Assembly: GCF_004376175.1 (NCBI RefSeq)
Contig: NZ_SNUY01000082.1
Coordinates: 1 to 14,081 of the forward strand
Direction of reading: 5' to 3'
Source of the DNA: Halalkalibacterium halodurans
GTDB lineage: Bacteria; Bacillota; Bacilli; Bacillales; Bacillaceae_D
DNA length: 14,081 nucleotides
Numbering within the stretch: the stretch's first letter is position 1; every line of letters starts with the position of its first letter. Shown piece after piece: positions 6,371 through 13,955 of this stretch. The translations under genes were made by a program, and so were the position numbers. Under the pieces are notes generated by a model, which saw nothing but the letters and a program-made list of their open reading frames with translations, was not told where the DNA came from and did no database searches.

Positions 6371-6811
6371 TTAAGATTCATCTTCTTTTTTGATTGAAGA
6401 TGGCTCATAATGGTTAAGATGTTTAATCAAGATCTCCTGCCTCTCGGCGAATGCATACAGATCTTCATGAAACGATTCGGGTTGAAAGCGACTGAACTTC
6501 AAACGAAACCCTTTTTTTAAGAAAAACACGACCACATGACTACGAGTTGTTTTGATGAAATACGCTTCTTTTATTTGTTCGGCTCTTATCTCACGAGATA
6601 ACAACTGAGCAGAAGAGAGGGAAATCGTAAATGAAATCACATCCCCTTTGATCTGAAACCGATAACGGATAAAAGAGAGCAATACAAACAGCAAAAACGG
6701 AAGATACAGGAGGAACGTCCACCTTCCTTCCAGAATGATACTATTTAAAAGTGTCAGCAAAGCGAGAGCTAGCCAAATCATCTTTCCTTCCGATGCAGTA
6801 TATACGTTCAT
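6371..6811 (-). CDS. Hypothetical small membrane protein (two N-terminal TM helices plus a soluble domain of about 90 aa; the layout resembles bacterial PH-domain proteins)
   Basis: Hydrophobic segments [18 protein letters not shown] and [16 protein letters not shown] are followed by a charged domain. I recognise no motif with confidence. Confidence 0.55.
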
Positions 6812-6966
6812 TGATCAATCGTCCCTTTCCATATGCTAGCCTACCGTCCTATAGGAAGCGTGCCTGTGGACAAAAGCATCTACACCCTTGGCAATCAACT
6901 ACCATTATACACAAGTTTAACGGCTTGTTGGACCAAAAACTTGTGGAAAGGAAGGGAGAAGCACAC

Positions 6967-7785
6967 ATGGGCAAAAACACATTTTTCTATCAATTCTTTA
7001 AACAATTGAAAACCGATCCAATCCCGGACTGGTCAGCAACCCTTGCGTACTATTTTATGCTATCCATCTTTCCACTCATCATTTTTATCCTAGCGCTCAT
7101 TCCATATTTTTCAATTGATCAACAGTACCTCTACCAAATCATTGTCGATTATTTGCCTGAGGATTTGGCAGACGTCTTTACCTCAGTGATTTTAGATGTT
7201 GTAAGCAGACCTCAAGGTGGCCTAGTATCATTCGGTGCTCTTGCCGCCATATGGACGGCTTCTAACGGCATGAATGCCCTCATTCGAGCCGTAAATCGTT
7301 GCTATGCGGTCGAAGAAACGCGAAGTCTTTATAATTTGCGGTTTCTTTCCATCATGTTAACAATCGGCATGATGCTCGTTTTTGTTACAACGCTGTTACT
7401 CCCTGTTTTCGGACATTTAATCATCCAATTGCTAGATTGGTTATTTATTGTTCCTGAAGGGACCGCTTCGGTGCTAAATGCCTTGCGCTGGATCGTTGGT
7501 ATTTGTTTAATGACCATTATCCTCATTGTTATCTATCTCCTCGCACCGAACACGTCTTTAAAATTAAAAGATGTCGTAACAGGTGCGGTTGTCGCAACAA
7601 TTGGCTGGCAGCTTATTTCATACGGCTTCTCTGCTTATGTAAGCAACTTCGGGAATTTCTCTGCCACGTATGGAAGTCTAGGAGGGGTGATCGTGCTCAT
7701 GCTTTGGTTTTTTCTCAGCAGCCTTATGCTCATCATTGGTGGTGAGGTCAACGCGGCCACCTATCGATTGAAGCAGCAACAGTAA
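6967..7785 (+). CDS. YihY/virulence factor BrkB family membrane protein
   Basis: FFKQLKTDPIPDWSATLAYYFMLSIFPLIIFILALIPYF and the multi-TM body are typical of the YihY/BrkB family. The real start is the ATG at 6967, preceded by AAGGAAGGGAGAAG. The 6751 start in the ORF track is an upstream read-through. Confidence 0.85.
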   Translation: MGKNTFFYQFFKQLKTDPIPDWSATLAYYFMLSIFPLIIFILALIPYFSIDQQYLYQIIVDYLPEDLADVFTSVILDVVSRPQGGLVSFGALAAIWTASNGMNALIRAVNRCYAVEETRSLYNLRFLSIMLTIGMMLVFVTTLLLPVFGHLIIQLLDWLFIVPEGTASVLNALRWIVGICLMTIILIVIYLLAPNTSLKLKDVVTGAVVATIGWQLISYGFSAYVSNFGNFSATYGSLGGVIVLMLWFFLSSLMLIIGGEVNAATYRLKQQQ

Positions 7786-11450: not shown

Positions 11451-11489
11451 GCAAAACGAGTCGCACCTTAGCAACTAAAGGTGCGACTC
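11451..11489 (-). terminator. Terminator of the sigma/PadR-like/SEDS-like operon
   Basis: An 11-bp stem, GAGTCGCACCT (11458-11468) with AGGTGCGACTC (11479-11489), is followed on the minus strand by GTTTTGCATTC. The stop codon of the SEDS-like gene (11475-11477) lies in the loop. Confidence 0.65.
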
Positions 11490-12770
11490 CTTCAAACCAC
11501 GATCGATCACAACATATTGATGGCGATAAACATTTAAAATGATCCCTATTAATCCACTGTAATACATTTGCTGTCCTATACCGAAGCTCAGTATTGGTAC
11601 GGAATGTTCGATAATGGGGAGCCAGCCAATGTTCATAAATACACCCATTATGAGCGGCACTACTATGAGTGTCGTTGCCCCGATCACAAGAACGCTTCCT
11701 TTCAGGTCAGGGGTTCGGCGGCTTGTGCGAACAAAGCGAACGATAGCATAGACAAACAGAGCTAAAATGCTCAATGCAGGAACCCAACCAATTTCATGTA
11801 TCAAAAACAAAAGCACTAAATCCGTATTGTAGCGAAGCTCTACCATCGTTTGTGCAAATTGTGAGCTTCCTCTCCCGAAAAATACCGAATGCTGTAGCAA
11901 ATCTTGATTGATGAACGGTATATAACCAAAGCTAGAAGAATATTGCTCGGGTCGAAGCCAACCGAGAACCCGGTCAATCTGATGCTGCGGCGCTATCGAG
12001 ATGTAAAACGTTACCGCGATTACGAGGAGACAGACATTCACCAAAAGAAAGGTTATTTTTTCCCTCTGTTTACTGCTTTTCAAAAAATACGTAAAAAGAC
12101 TTAATGAAAAATACGCAAATGCAGCAATATAATGTGTTAAAAACGTTAAAAACATGACAGGAAGCCATACGAGTAGGATTGTCAACGAAAGAGGCTTTCG
12201 TTTTGCAATCAATAAGTAGCCAATCCAGCCGAGTAAGAGAAGAAAGTTGACGACCATCATATCCATCGTTCCACCTAGTGGAGAAAAATACACTTTCCCG
12301 TTAACTGTTAGCGAAAATATCGGCATTAACGTGAGTAGCAATATCCCCATTCCCATTGCCAGCCATATTTTCCACCATGAAAGCAGTTTTTCATAAGGAA
12401 AGAGCATGCATCCAACGAGAACAATACTAGAAGCAAATAAAGATAGCCATTGGTATGTCATGATTCCTCCGATTTCGTTCTTTACGAGAAACACCGGTAG
12501 CATACTAATGGCTAGCAGCAGCCCAGCAACGATCAAAAGTGGCCAATCCATCACAGGACGGTGCAAGCGGTTCATTTTCAATCCTAAATCGTCAGGATCC
12601 CCCATGTCTTGGACCGCTTTTGCACTCGCCTCTTCCTCCGTATAACCTGCTTTTTTATAGGCTTTCGAGCTCTCATTCAGATGATGACGAAGCTCTTTTT
12701 CCACTAGTTCTCGCCCTGCTTTTGATTTCATTTGACCTAAAACCCTTGCAAGAAAGTCATCCATTTTCAA
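11475..12770 (-). CDS. Divergent SEDS (FtsW/RodA/SpoVE)-like polytopic membrane protein with an N-terminal DUF1700/permease-prefix-like cytoplasmic helical domain
   Basis: The N-terminal 70 aa (MDDFLARVLGQMKSKAGRELVEKELRHHLNESSKAYKKAGYTEEEASAKAVQDMGDPDDLG) have the DUF1700/permease-prefix pattern seen in partners of PadR regulators. About 10 TM segments follow. The C-terminal third aligns by eye with SEDS: LGWLRPE...FGYIP...FFGRG...YNTDLVLLFLIHEIGW...NIGWLPIIEHSVPILSFGIGQQ corresponds to SEDS ...HTDFIF..GEELG...G.LP.TG.PLPF.SYGGS. A TTG start at 12770 lies 7 nt after GGGGTG. An ATG follows two codons later. Confidence 0.7.
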   Translation of the reverse strand: MKMDDFLARVLGQMKSKAGRELVEKELRHHLNESSKAYKKAGYTEEEASAKAVQDMGDPDDLGLKMNRLHRPVMDWPLLIVAGLLLAISMLPVFLVKNEIGGIMTYQWLSLFASSIVLVGCMLFPYEKLLSWWKIWLAMGMGILLLTLMPIFSLTVNGKVYFSPLGGTMDMMVVNFLLLLGWIGYLLIAKRKPLSLTILLVWLPVMFLTFLTHYIAAFAYFSLSLFTYFLKSSKQREKITFLLVNVCLLVIAVTFYISIAPQHQIDRVLGWLRPEQYSSSFGYIPFINQDLLQHSVFFGRGSSQFAQTMVELRYNTDLVLLFLIHEIGWVPALSILALFVYAIVRFVRTSRRTPDLKGSVLVIGATTLIVVPLIMGVFMNIGWLPIIEHSVPILSFGIGQQMYYSGLIGIILNVYRHQYVVIDRGLKESHL

Positions 12771-13185
12771 AGCCCAACACCCCCTTAAACGTTAGCTTCG
12801 CCTCTTGTTCTACTGTTCTTGTTAGTACATCCCGCCCCTTGGATGTTGTTTGATAAATCTTTACTTCTTCTCCATCCCTCATCACCCACCGACTTTTCAC
12901 AAAACATTCCATTTCTAGCCTGTGTAAGTATGGATAAAGAACTCCCTCCTGACCATAAAAGGTATGACACCCTTTTTGCTCTAGGTTCGTGAGCAATTGA
13001 TATCCCGTCTTTTCTTCATGCTGCAAAGAGGCCAGGATCTCGAGCAAGTCATTTGGTCGCACGAGCGTTTGCAGCATTAGCTTTTTACGGACAGCGTCCT
13101 GTCCACGTTCTGTGAAAGACCAGTTTTGAAACATCGATGTATCGAGTGACTGTTTCATTTTTTTCCGAAGCTCATCGTCCATCAT
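12757..13185 (-). CDS. PadR-like winged-helix protein with an N-terminal extension of about 45 aa (sits in the anti-sigma position)
   Basis: LLEILASLQHEEKTGYQLLTNLEQKG...GVLYPYLHRLEMECFVKSRWVMRDGEEVKIYQTTSKGRDVL follows the PadR wHTH pattern (GY.I...L, G.LYP.L.RLE..G.I, K.Y.LT..G). Its start overlaps the sigma stop (ATGA) and its stop overlaps the downstream start. Confidence 0.7.
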   Translation of the reverse strand: MMDDELRKKMKQSLDTSMFQNWSFTERGQDAVRKKLMLQTLVRPNDLLEILASLQHEEKTGYQLLTNLEQKGCHTFYGQEGVLYPYLHRLEMECFVKSRWVMRDGEEVKIYQTTSKGRDVLTRTVEQEAKLTFKGVLGFENG

Positions 13186-13733
13186 GTTTCGTCCTCCTTT
13201 TCGAGCAAATTTTTCAAAAGCAACCGTCCTTTTCTTAACCGTGTCTTAACTGTATTTTCGTTAAGTCCTGTAAAGCTTGCCACTTCCTTAACCGACAGTT
13301 CCTCGTAATAGTAGAAATAAATGACTTCTCGGTACGAAAGGGGCAACGAAAAAACAGCAGCTGCTAATCGCTCTTCATCACTTTTCAACAAAACTTCGTA
13401 TTCTGGTGTTTGTTCTGTTGTTTCGATTTCCTCCGCCACTTCCGACGGATAAACATGCTTTGCGTGCCAGCTTTTCAAAAAGTCCTTACCTCGATTAATG
13501 GCGATTCGGTACAGCCACGCTTTGGCAGAGGATCGCGTTTGATATGTATGGTAAGACTGAAACGCTCTAACAAAAACCTCTTGCGTTAAGTCTTCCGCTA
13601 TTTGTTTATCTTTAACGTAAGAATAAACAACACGGAGAATCGCTGTGCCGTACTCTTCCATCCAAGCAATTAGTTGATGTTCCCGCATTTCTGCCGTTTC
13701 GATTTCTCCTATTTTCCCTGGTAACGACTCCAC
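13182..13733 (-). CDS. ECF-type RNA polymerase sigma-70 family factor
   Basis: Region 2 is DLTQEVFVRAFQSYHTYQTRSSAKAWLYRIAINRGKDFLK. Region 4 is REVIYFYYYEELSVKEVASFTGLNENTVKTRLRKGRLLLK. The GTG start lies 7 nt after AGGAGG. Confidence 0.9.
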   Translation of the reverse strand: MESLPGKIGEIETAEMREHQLIAWMEEYGTAILRVVYSYVKDKQIAEDLTQEVFVRAFQSYHTYQTRSSAKAWLYRIAINRGKDFLKSWHAKHVYPSEVAEEIETTEQTPEYEVLLKSDEERLAAAVFSLPLSYREVIYFYYYEELSVKEVASFTGLNENTVKTRLRKGRLLLKNLLEKEDET

Positions 13734-13753: not shown

Positions 13754-13782
13754 TAAACGATGCACACACGAAAATGGTTTTC
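13754..13782 (-). promoter_or_regulatory. Candidate ECF-type autoregulatory promoter
   Basis: The minus strand reads GAAAAC-17 nt-CGTTTA (an AAC-type -35 and a CGT-type -10), directly upstream of the sigma gene's RBS. Confidence 0.35.
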
Positions 13783-13955
13783 TTTTTTCGCTTTATCTTT
13801 ATTGAAAGATCTCGATCACCAAAAATGTACCAAATGAACATCGTTTACATAATGTATAAAGACTTTTGCGGAAATCACAAACATCCAAACGGCCACATTT
13901 GGAACAAAAATGATTGACAACGTATAGGATAATTTAGCATCTTCTCTATCGTCCA

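Follow-up and report, generated by a model that had tools for sequence, protein, structure and literature searches.

The 14,081 nucleotides of Halalkalibacterium halodurans DNA analysed here (the window) raise the question of whether a protein with the fold of a SEDS polymerase is necessarily a polymerase. SEDS proteins are prime antibiotic targets and, to our knowledge, have so far been regarded as uniformly catalytic. One open reading frame of the window, starting with TTG and lying exactly where the first-pass annotation had placed it, encodes a SEDS-like membrane protein that shares 99% identity with BH3360 of H. halodurans C-125 and is referred to by that name below (Table 1). The first-pass annotation proposed that this protein has kept the SEDS shape, has lost its catalytic signatures and, being fused to a cytoplasmic signalling domain, would act as a pseudo-enzyme receptor.

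Table 1. Features of the window discussed in the text, in order of position.
Feature	Position	Strand	Details
Intrinsic-terminator-like hairpin	11458..11489	-	12 bp, 7 GC pairs; overlaps the BH3360 stop codon
BH3360, HAAS + SEDS-like membrane protein	11475..12770	-	431 aa
SEDS-fold 10-TM domain, aa 76-418	11517..12545	-	PF01098, Foldseek
P392-I-L-S-F-G-I-G399, degenerate ECL5 P-L-x-S-Y-G-G-S motif	11574..11597	-	alignments
GAT codon, D317	11820..11822	-	equivalent of the catalytic Asp, kept
N157-G-K-V-Y-F162, degenerate ECL2 (K/N)GAxRW motif	12285..12302	-	alignments
HAAS/perm_prefix_1 domain, N-terminal, cytoplasmic, aa 1-72	12555..12770	-	NF038403; helical bundle
PadR-family winged-helix repressor (LstR type)	12757..13185	-	142 aa; NF006931/PRK09416, PF03551
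ECF-type sigma factor, 'sigma C' type	13182..13733	-	183 aa; NF006930/PRK09415, Sigma70_r2 + r4_2
Predicted ECF-sigma-dependent promoter of the operon	13754..13780	-	-35 AAACC, 16-nt spacer, -10 CGTTTA; in silico

The SEDS shape is indeed kept. PF01098 matches residues 78-418 of BH3360 with 49.8 bits (cut-off 26.4), and the AF2 model (pLDDT 94.2, pTM 0.92) has target-normalised Foldseek TM-scores of 0.76-0.83 against 8p1u, 8bh1, 8tj3, 6bar and the Thermus RodA structure 6pl5. BH3360 shares with canonical SEDS proteins (6BAR, 6PL5, 8TJ3, 8BH1, 8P1U) the 10-TM fold, the catalytic Asp, the Arg that binds Und-PP, the P-x-x-S-x-G core and a number of structural Gly and Pro residues. It differs from them in being fast-evolving, with about 30% identity between genera, and in its scores with the RodA, FtsW and SpoVE equivalog models (59.8, 50.4 and 30.8 bits), all of which lie at about one-sixth of the NCBIfam cut-offs (336.7, 337.5 and 448.8 bits) or lower. 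The next structural neighbour after the SEDS proteins in the Foldseek search is a related GT-C enzyme, WaaL. That the protein might be an O-antigen ligase or Wzy was rejected, WaaL being a far weaker structural match (TM-score 0.5) and only one of 95 relatives matching Wzy_C, weakly.

The fused signalling domain is equally real. The NF038403 (perm_prefix_1) model matches residues 17-63 of BH3360 with 41.1 bits (cut-off 30) and is matched by all 95 relatives scanned, while the PF22564 HAAS model is matched by 33 of the 95, with BH3360 itself below the threshold. In the AF2 prediction, the helices of the domain span residues 3-12, 17-40, 45-56 and 59-69, and its GxP motif is G57-D58-P59. Unlike canonical SEDS proteins, BH3360 has an extra N-terminal signalling domain and has no linked class B PBP; no gene for such a PBP lies within the 14-kb window. 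Linkage to a class B PBP is not obligatory for canonical SEDS proteins.

To place the active-site residues, BH3360 was aligned with phmmer, independently, to each of E. coli RodA (8tj3_B), P. aeruginosa FtsW (8p1u) and T. thermophilus RodA (6pl5); these alignments are concordant with two MAFFT alignments and bear out the by-eye register of the first-pass annotation. On the donor side, the main elements are retained. The T-D of the HTDFIF motif survives in Y314-N-T-D317-L-V-L, where every alignment matches D317 to the catalytic Asp of ECL4 (D262 of E. coli RodA, D255 of T. thermophilus RodA, D275 of P. aeruginosa FtsW, D297 of E. coli FtsW). R267 corresponds to the Arg that binds Und-PP/pyrophosphate (R210 of E. 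coli RodA, R246 of E. coli FtsW), a residue found in 29 of 29 canonical sequences and in 93% of the BH3360 family. In ECL5, where PILSFGIG does occupy the place of the PLxSYGGS motif, Pro392, Ser395 and the first Gly (G397) are kept, while the Tyr has become F396, the second Gly I398 and the last Ser G399.

On the acceptor side, the corresponding elements are lost. NGKVYF stands at the place of the ECL2 motif, as had been noted; a one-residue deletion has removed the Arg, and the Trp is replaced by Tyr161 or Phe162, depending on the aligner. This Trp is present in 29 of 29 canonical SEDS sequences versus 17% of the BH3360 family. The invariant ECL2 Gln (Q111 of E. coli RodA), again universal in the 29 canonical sequences and kept in about 4% of 223 relatives, is D170 in BH3360. 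The ECL3 P-D-L-G motif (P196-G199 of E. coli FtsW) reads T212-H213-Y214-I215, and R48 of E. coli RodA is replaced by Y106. Other canonical features have disappeared as well: the E114/K117 pair and the E-E pair are absent, there is no Pro equivalent to P257 of E. coli RodA, and the invariant Gly at G371 of E. coli FtsW is E388. At the four FtsW sites G371, Y379, G380 and G381, BH3360 therefore has E388, F396, G397 and I398, of which one is canonical.

The degeneracy is greater than the first-pass annotation had claimed. Among 31 columns that are each at least 85% conserved in a small set of canonical SEDS proteins (n=29), BH3360 retains 10 (32%), against a canonical median of 97% and minimum of 75%. 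Twelve positions are those whose substitution reduces or abolishes the function of E. coli RodA or FtsW (PMC8765783, PMC10449877). BH3360 is non-canonical at nine of them (R48, R101/R137, W102/W138, Q111/Q147, P196/L198/G199, P257, G371, Y379 and G381) and canonical at three (R210/R246, D262/D297 and G380). The FtsW substitutions Y379A, G380A and G381V/D cause loss of function (PMC8765783), and the Ala mutant of RodA P257 is inactive (PMC10449877). E. coli RodA W102F keeps its activity in vitro (PMC10449877), and a Trp-to-Phe change is thus weak evidence when taken alone. The loss of catalytic signatures therefore applies to many functional residues, but not to the catalytic Asp or the essential Arg, and because D317 and R267 are kept we can only infer that BH3360 itself has lost polymerase activity and is 'catalytically dead'.

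BH3360 belongs to a large family within the Bacillota. This family was recovered solely by an exhaustive search of representative genomes; in species-representative genomes (Firmicutes), at least 569 stretches contain relatives. A word-indexed homologue search with the single BH3360 protein gave only 4 matches, the same type of search with the family profile returned mostly canonical SEDS proteins, and plasmids contained no match. All 223 sampled sequences are full length and carry the N-terminal domain. In these 223 non-identical relatives, the column of the catalytic Asp holds Asp in 66%, Glu in 16%, Asn in 13% and another residue in 6%, so that it is non-Asp in 34% and non-acidic in 18%. 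On a neighbour-joining tree, Fitch parsimony requires at least 23 changes from an acidic to a non-acidic residue or back. The family clade of this tree also takes in two canonical sequences (P0179 and P0197); both carry canonical motifs on inspection, and their placement is thus a rooting artefact. Since 82% have an acidic residue at the catalytic column, selection for a carboxylate persists in most members, while the 18% without one still have the full architecture and the PadR linkage.

The columns of R267, P392, S395, Y396, G397 and G299 are 83-100% kept regardless of the state of the Asp. The SYGG-type motif is likewise conserved (S 90%, Y 86%, first G 93%), and its erosion, which the first-pass annotation read as a sign of degeneracy, is a peculiarity of BH3360 and not a family trait. 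Conservation in the family is strongest in the HAAS domain and on the cytoplasmic face, with family-specific invariant positions in the HAAS domain, in ICL1 and where TM10 ends on the cytoplasmic side. The top conserved HAAS residues (E26, H30, G42, A48, A52, M56, G57, G63, H70 and P72) are all present in BH3360. ECL1-4, in contrast, are less conserved than in canonical SEDS proteins (for example, 0.33 versus 0.80 for ECL3).

The search for related loci was seeded with six closer relatives and kept 80 loci, none of them from Listeria. Across 83 loci, no more than three gene families are recurrent: the SEDS-like gene (83), PadR (78) and the ECF sigma factor (56); no class B PBP or other effector is recurrent. 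PadR lies directly upstream of the SEDS-like gene in 78 of the 83, arranged as sigma-PadR-SEDS in 48 loci and as PadR-SEDS in 30, and the stop codon of one gene usually overlaps the start codon of the next. These observations, together with the repeated loss of the Asp and of the ECL2 and ECL3 motifs, and with conservation that peaks in the HAAS domain and on the cytoplasmic face, favour a non-polymerase, receptor-like role for the family.

In the window, the three genes form an operon that ends at the terminator-like hairpin. The sigma factor scores 247.7 bits with the NF006930/PRK09415 model 'RNA polymerase factor sigma C' (cut-off 198). The stop codon of its gene overlaps the PadR start codon (ATGA), and the 3' end of the PadR gene overlaps the BH3360 reading frame by 14 nt. 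The PadR protein scores 169.6 bits with NF006931/PRK09416 (cut-off 112), matches PF03551 on residues 50-122 and has an N-terminal extension of about 35-40 aa, which is restricted to sigma-linked operons. The predicted promoter begins 26 nt upstream of the start codon of the sigma gene and is the single match to AAAC-N16-18-CGTYTA in the whole window. A -10-type element CGT[CT]TA is found upstream of 35 of 48 sigma-linked operons (the window counted in), and the aligned upstream regions of such operons give the in silico consensus AAAC(C)-N16/17-TCGTCTAA; the -10 element of the window is CGTTTA, not CGTCTA. There is no inverted repeat with a seed of at least 6 upstream of the sigma gene, and ATGT-N9-ACAT at -108, considered as a PadR operator, was dropped as too weak. 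No Rfam family is found in the window.

The closest described system is encountered in Listeria, where the operon sigC-lstR-lmo0421 has the same gene order. Ravi et al. (2024) catalogued lmo0421 as HAAS+FTSW_RODA_SPOVE in the context ECF sigma factor, PadR, HAAS+FtsW/RodA/SpoVE (Table S4, PMC11237479). The claim that the proposed role had not been described for this family was thus overstated; the family-wide active-site decay is new here. Both the sigma factor and the PadR protein of the window exceed the cut-offs of their NCBIfam models (PRK09415 'sigma C' and PRK09416 PadR family), and the third gene of either operon has weak homology to RodA and FtsW. BH3360, from an alkaliphilic member of the Bacillaceae, is 431 aa long and Lmo0421 416 aa. 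Control by both sigma factor and PadR is established for the Listeria operon and is predicted for the window from its ECF-type promoter. Because Lmo0421 was compared by description only, the equivalence rests on architecture, the NCBIfam models and the literature.

Experiments on complementation and on the regulon come from Listeria only. Hauf et al. (2019) termed Lmo0421 an FtsW/RodA homologue that is non-canonical; when overproduced, it was unable to replace FtsW1 or RodA1-3, and antibiotic susceptibility, moenomycin sensitivity, wall ultrastructure and the essentiality of FtsW and RodA were all unchanged (PMC6624303). The LstR regulon comprises essentially no more than the operon itself, and none of penicillin, ampicillin, fosfomycin and cycloserine induces PsigC.

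HAAS-PadR dyads in general combine an N-terminal HAAS domain with the GxP motif on a multi-TM domain, as in BH3360, with a preceding standalone PadR gene, and the FtsW/RodA/SpoVE domain is named among the fusion partners (PMC11237479). The HAAS-fused TM domains were proposed to be sensors, and the dyads an alternative to two-component systems, in which a conformational change of HAAS releases PadR; this proposal was made from genomic context (PMC11237479). Beyond such dyads, the BH3360 system adds the ECF sigma factor and the PadR extension. Experimentally, the best precedent for a HAAS protein that acts on its own PadR is LftR-LftS of Listeria, likewise a PadR repressor in an operon with a HAAS-superfamily protein. 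LftS has a DUF1048 domain, placed in the HAAS superfamily by Ravi et al. (2024; PMC11237479), and is needed for de-repression of LftR upon exposure to aurantimycin. In contrast to BH3360, LftS is small and soluble and has no SEDS domain, and the system works with no sigma factor and with a distal ABC transporter (lieAB) as output.

Given the lost residues, the fused signalling domain and the adjacent PadR gene, BH3360 is most likely a sensor of a known type, of an architecture that is already catalogued, and not a working polymerase. We assign a probability of roughly 55% to the reading that it is the membrane sensor component of a self-contained ECF sigma/PadR/HAAS-SEDS envelope-signalling module, the H. 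halodurans counterpart of sigC-lstR-lmo0421, and no canonical lipid II polymerase. The SEDS-derived 10-TM domain would be the sensory or ligand-binding part. Because the donor-side elements survive while the acceptor-side elements are lost, the likeliest signal would be a wall precursor linked to undecaprenyl pyrophosphate, or a perturbation of such a precursor. The state of the TM domain may be passed to the HAAS domain through two family-specific cytoplasmic motifs, D-Y-R-K-L of ICL1 and the C-terminal S-V-Y-R-R-K. The HAAS domain would then bind or release the PadR repressor, in whichever direction the presumed contact signals, and the release of PadR would de-repress the sigma-dependent promoter, so that the operon might amplify its own expression.

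Several observations weigh against the sensor reading. D317 and the essential Arg are retained, 66% of the family have Asp and 82% an acidic residue at the catalytic column, P-x-x-S-Y-G is strongly conserved, the W102F variant of E. coli RodA is active in vitro, and the four cell-wall antibiotics fail to induce PsigC in Listeria. Much of this also favours a rather unlikely alternative, in which BH3360 is an active, specialised glycosyltransferase, PadR and the sigma factor merely set its expression, and HAAS provides feedback from product or substrate. One version of this is an inducible back-up peptidoglycan polymerase, resistant to a natural SEDS inhibitor; another is an enzyme that uses modified lipid II or a different acceptor. 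The retention of D317, R267 and the P-x-x-S-(Y/F)-G core and the 82% of acidic residues fit an enzyme, and a loss concentrated on the acceptor side (ECL2, ECL3, R48) fits a changed acceptor; the next structural neighbour WaaL is a GT-C enzyme, the gene is the sole non-regulatory product of the regulon in Listeria, and the possibility was discussed by Hauf et al. (PMC6624303). However, BH3360 naturally carries equivalents of FtsW loss-of-function changes (G381 to I, G371 to E, Q147 to D, P196 to T) and has no counterpart of P257, a residue whose change to Ala inactivates RodA, the 18% of the family without a carboxylate keep architecture and PadR linkage intact, none of the 83 loci has a linked cognate class B PBP, and overproduced Lmo0421 alters neither moenomycin sensitivity nor the essentiality of FtsW and RodA.

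A pure sensor would leave the module without an evident output, as the LstR regulon in Listeria is essentially its own operon. This paradox would be resolved if BH3360 were both a sensor and an effector without catalysis, which on induction binds either Und-PP-linked precursors or a class B PBP, shields or titrates them and so modulates wall synthesis under stress, with its occupancy fed back through HAAS to PadR in a 'need-based' manner, as in Bce-type systems. According to PMC8765783, E. coli FtsW variants at the same positions are inactive, yet still bind FtsI and lipid II, and 93% of the family have the donor-site Arg. We nevertheless regard the effector role as distinctly improbable, since overproduction of Lmo0421 leaves antibiotic susceptibility and wall ultrastructure unaltered in Listeria, and it seems quantitatively doubtful that a membrane protein could shield lipid II stoichiometrically.

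BH3360 is very unlikely to be a decaying relic that is losing all function and whose additional substitutions mark the onset of pseudogenisation: it is 12th lowest of 223 in canonical-column retention, departs from the family consensus at eight strongly conserved positions (G114S, D125P, L391V, F393I, Y396F, G398I, S413N and K418Q) and is 26-32% identical to relatives with a 46-54% identical sigma factor (about 36% would be typical), but its 431-codon reading frame is intact, translationally coupled to PadR and followed by a strong terminator, all highly conserved HAAS residues are present, the AF2 model is very confident, and its 90%-identity cluster has 14 member sequences.

The sensor reading of BH3360 can be extended to the family, tentatively. 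HAAS-SEDS proteins may be pseudo-enzyme receptors that use R267 and the P-x-x-S-Y-G loop to read whether the former donor site is occupied by lipid II or Und-PP-linked precursors. The HAAS domain would then free PadR, and in the Bacillales the PadR extension might in addition free the ECF sigma factor.

The family thus presents a large group of Firmicute proteins in which the SEDS fold and the donor-site residues are kept, while the catalytic Asp and the acceptor-side motifs have been lost repeatedly. In practical terms, HAAS-SEDS genes should not be annotated as FtsW, RodA or 'lipid II flippase'. They are a concrete candidate for a receptor of lipid-linked wall precursors, a role that would account for the behaviour of Lmo0421 as a non-functional paralogue in Listeria. 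If this is true, Firmicutes would have a widespread and previously unrecognised means of directly sensing the flux of wall precursors, built from a dead polymerase.

BH3360, the SEDS-like gene (99% identical to BH3360 of Halalkalibacterium (Bacillus) halodurans C-125), closes a compact operon in the order sigma factor, PadR, BH3360, with junction overlaps of 4 and 14 nt and a 12-bp hairpin terminator overlapping its stop codon. The remaining genes of the window are unrelated housekeeping and transport genes, among them those for an NhaC-type antiporter, BioY, LuxS, a DEAD-box helicase and a thiazole kinase; neither a penicillin-binding protein nor an Rfam match was found in the 14-kb window. 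A 146-aa ORF without a Pfam match, which overlaps the 5' end of a BrkB-family gene by about 60 nt, could be an artefact or a small gene missing from the annotation.

Features of the operon and further elements located in the window
Feature	Position	Strand	Remarks
BH3360	11475-12770	-	intact ORF, 431 aa, TTG start; last of three operon genes
TM10-end cytoplasmic motif of BH3360	about 11517-11537		aa 412-418
ICL1 cytoplasmic motif of BH3360	about 12387-12401		aa 124-128
PadR-family repressor	12757-13185	-	PRK09416, 169.6 bits (cut-off 112); N-terminal extension aa 1-45
ECF sigma factor	13182-13733	-	NCBIfam 'sigma C' PRK09415, 247.7 bits (cut-off 198)
Predicted ECF-type promoter	13754-13780	-	AAACC-N16-CGTTTA (variant -10); sole match in 14 kb
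Weak ATGT-N9-ACAT	about 13825-13841
146-aa ORF	6371-6811	-
BrkB-family gene	6751-7785	+

Residues 17-63 of BH3360 match NCBIfam NF038403 'permease prefix domain 1' (41.1 bits, cut-off 30), while residues 78-418 match Pfam PF01098 FTSW_RODA_SPOVE with only 49.8 bits. Against the equivalog models, the scores are 59.8 bits for RodA (cut-off 336.7), 50.4 for FtsW (337.5) and 30.8 for SpoVE (448.8). An AlphaFold2 model based on an alignment of 95 relatives is very confident (mean pLDDT 94.2, pTM 0.92), and its top PDB matches are FtsW and RodA (target-normalised TM-scores 0.76-0.83), with WaaL next and far weaker. Pairwise phmmer alignments to E. coli RodA (8TJ3), P. aeruginosa FtsW (8P1U) and T. 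thermophilus RodA (6PL5) all place N-T-D317-L-V on H-T-D-F-I/V, V-N157-G-K-V-Y-F162 on (K/N)-G-A-x-R-W, and V-P392-I-L-S-F-G-I-G399 on L-P-L-x-S-Y-G-G-S. As a numbering check, the Asp of HTDF is residue 273 of 6PL5_A, which becomes the published D255 once the 18-residue tag offset is subtracted. The SEDS fold is therefore kept, and the motifs that the first-pass annotation had aligned by eye are in the correct register.

Published mutation sites were mapped onto an alignment of BH3360, three structure-derived references, 26 further canonical SEDS proteins and 222 other non-identical relatives; E. coli FtsW numbering was carried via P. aeruginosa FtsW (offset 22), and the residue identities agree. 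Loss-of-function, dominant-negative sites in E. coli FtsW are K133, A135, R137, W138, Q147, P196, L198, G199, Y242, R243, R246, D297, G371, Y379, G380 and G381 (Li et al. 2022, PMC8765783). In E. coli RodA, D262A and P257A are inactive, R48A severely reduces activity, R101A, W102A and Q111A reduce it, and R210A lowers it significantly, R210 being seemingly essential; W102F is tolerated by RodA in vitro but not in B. subtilis SpoVE (Nygaard et al. 2023, PMC10449877).

Functionally defined SEDS sites in BH3360 and their retention among 223 family sequences, for columns invariant or near-invariant in the canonical set
Canonical site	BH3360	State	Kept in family
R48 (RodA)	Y106	lost
A135 (FtsW)	K159	changed
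R101 / R137 (RodA / FtsW)	one-residue deletion	lost
W102 / W138 (RodA / FtsW; ECL2 Trp)	Y161/F162	changed	17%
Q111 / Q147 (RodA / FtsW; ECL2 Gln)	D170	lost	about 4%
P-D-L-G (FtsW P196-G199)	T212-H213-Y214-I215	lost	13% (Asp)
Y242 (FtsW)	H263	changed
R210 / R246 (RodA / FtsW)	R267	kept	93%
P257 (RodA)	no Pro	lost
D262 / D297 (RodA / FtsW)	D317	kept
G371 (FtsW)	E388	lost	33%
Pro before SYGG	P392		100%
Ser of SYGG			90%
Y379 (FtsW; Tyr of SYGG)	F396	changed	86%
G380 (FtsW; first Gly of SYGG)	G397	kept	93%
G381 (FtsW; second Gly of SYGG)	I398	lost	49%

Conservation within the canonical set reaches at least 85% at 31 columns; of these, canonical proteins scored leave-one-out keep a median of 97% (minimum 75%), and BH3360 keeps 10 (32%). 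The motif decay reported from the sequence is thus real and goes further than was claimed. Calling the protein catalytically degenerate captures the many lost signatures but is unproven, since the catalytic Asp (D317) and the pyrophosphate-binding Arg (R267) are retained.

In the family as a whole, acceptor-side and ECL2/ECL3 signatures are gone from the SEDS-fold domain, while the donor-side Arg and the ECL5 loop persist. The catalytic Asp column holds D in 147 sequences, E in 35, N in 28 and other residues in 13, with unambiguous local alignments (HTNF, HTTF, HTEL); the non-acidic members include close relatives in sigma-PadR-SEDS operons, such as that of Halalkalibacter urbisdiaboli (HTTF). 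Fitch parsimony on a neighbour-joining tree gives at least 23 acidic/non-acidic switches, a rough count inflated by error in that tree. The conserved Arg, Pro, Ser, Tyr and Gly stand at 83-100% with or without the Asp, and upkeep of the family is therefore independent of the SEDS catalytic base. The family forms a clade separate from the canonical set; two canonical sequences attached at its base were dismissed as a rooting artefact.

Conservation has shifted inward, to the cytoplasmic face. The top-conserved positions are E26, H30, G42, A48, A52, M56, G57, G63, H70 and P72 of the HAAS domain, W76, ICL1 (D-Y-R-K-L) and the cytoplasmic end of TM10 (L-S-V-Y-R-R-K), whereas ECL1, ECL3 and ECL4 show far weaker conservation than their canonical counterparts. 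The ICL1 and TM10 motifs, from which BH3360 deviates at P125, N413 and Q418, are absent from canonical SEDS and are likely to be a HAAS docking or transmission surface.

BH3360 is an outlier among its relatives. It ranks 12th lowest of 223 in canonical-column retention, departs from the family consensus at eight strongly conserved positions (G114S, D125P, L391V, F393I, Y396F, G398I, S413N and K418Q), and shares 26-32% identity with relatives at 46-54% sigma-factor identity, where about 36% is typical. For this reason, the SYGG erosion is a peculiarity of BH3360, while loss of the ECL2 and ECL3 motifs is a family trait.

Searching 1.84 billion cluster representatives exhaustively with HMMER yielded 3,843 matches. 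Practically all of the best 150 are full-length proteins (~410-490 aa) whose alignments start at residue 1-6, and they therefore include the N-terminal domain. NF038403 is matched by every one of the 95 members scanned, Pfam PF22564 'HAAS' by 33 of them. A metagenome subgroup (P0086, P0162-P0168; 457-515 aa) is 30-80 aa longer and has top scores against the family profile. GTDB species genomes hold at least 569 relatives, from which 80 loci were kept, spanning Bacillaceae of many genera (including the B. cereus group), Sporosarcina, Paenibacillaceae and many Clostridia. Together with five other loci, these contain only three recurring gene families: the SEDS-like gene (83 loci), PadR (directly upstream of it in 78 of 83) and the ECF sigma factor (56 of 83, in 48 directly upstream of PadR); the next commonest neighbour occurs in 4. 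The SEDS-like domain is obligatorily fused to HAAS, and adjacency to PadR is obligatory and often translationally coupled. The sigma-PadR-SEDS arrangement (48 loci) is confined to Bacillales, and PadR-SEDS (30 loci) occurs in Clostridia and Paenibacillus. Among the loci compared, the HAAS-SEDS genes have no linked class B PBP. In Paenibacillus albiflavus (L002, 6463-9120), an ABC ATPase and a 625-aa FtsX-type permease lie 164 nt downstream of PadR-SEDS and could be a Bce-like effector; the pairing does not recur, the ATPase family being found in only 4 of 83 loci.

A conserved, predicted ECF-type promoter precedes the sigma genes. In the 200 nt upstream of these genes in loci L003-L079 and in the window, the consensus is AAAC(C)-N16/17-TCGTCTAA, about 29-31 nt before the start codon, and a -10-type element is present in 35 of 48 regions. 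By analogy with Listeria PsigC, positive autoregulation is predicted, and the consensus could serve as a genome query for the sigma regulon. In the window and across loci L003-L079, PadR of sigma-linked operons is lengthened at its N terminus by a conserved stretch of ~35-40 aa (median protein length 137 aa, n=48), and PadR of sigma-less loci begins with the winged helix itself (median 112 aa, n=30); presence of the extension follows that of the sigma factor closely, with overlapping length ranges. Because no conventional anti-sigma gene is present in the sigma-linked operons, this extension is a candidate sigma-binding (anti-sigma-like) element. In ten sigma-less Clostridia loci (L049, L051, L053, L061, L063, L066, L068, L069, L070 and L074), a near-identical palindrome, ATGTATAAAAATACAT (ATGTACAAAAATACAT in one), lies 37-58 nt upstream of padR; its form, ATGT-N8-ACAT, is that of the classical PadR operator. 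Among sigma-linked loci, the pattern appears only far upstream in two (L034 and L050) and, weakly, in the window.

The same architecture is found in sigC-lstR-lmo0421 of Listeria monocytogenes. Lmo0421 was set aside as the weakest FtsW/RodA homologue (Rismondo et al. 2019). When de-repressed, it cannot replace FtsW1 or any RodA, and neither wall ultrastructure nor sensitivity to penicillin, vancomycin, moenomycin, bacitracin, fosfomycin or cycloserine changes; the promoter is repressed by LstR, whose regulon is essentially its own operon, and activated by sigma C, and a search for inducers found none (Hauf et al. 2019, PMC6624303). The HAAS domain and the HAAS–PadR dyad have been defined and proposed as an alternative to two-component systems, with FtsW/RodA/SpoVE among the multi-TM domains fused to HAAS (Ravi et al. 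2024, PMC11237479). The statement that such a role had never been described was therefore too strong: the locus is an unusually eroded example of the catalogued HAAS–PadR(–sigma) module with a SEDS-type TM domain. Among HAAS-superfamily proteins, LftS (DUF1048) provides an experimental precedent for action on the partner PadR: it is required for aurantimycin-dependent de-repression by LftR. Our literature search found no paper analysing catalytic residues of HAAS-linked SEDS-like domains.

The proposal of a pseudo-enzyme receptor is reasonable, although loss of catalysis is unproven for a protein bearing D317 and R267; we put the probability that BH3360 is a non-polymerase sensor at about 0.55. 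The TM domain would bind an Und-PP-linked precursor, or sense membrane or wall perturbation, and the conserved cytoplasmic motifs would relay the signal to HAAS, which would sequester or release PadR; once PadR is released, sigma would drive the promoter and the operon would amplify itself. The main weakness is that the module has no obvious output beyond the SEDS-like protein itself, so that a dual sensor/effector or a residual specialised catalytic role is possible. A specialised active enzyme seems unlikely, and a non-catalytic effector that is also a sensor somewhat more so. A decaying relic is very unlikely; every conserved HAAS residue is intact, which argues against simple pseudogenisation. 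What appears to be new is the family-wide evidence, drawn from sequence comparison, for repeated loss of the catalytic Asp, wholesale loss of acceptor-side motifs and constraint moved to the cytoplasmic face. This evidence replaces the loose label 'non-canonical homologue' with a specific pseudo-enzyme hypothesis that can be tested.
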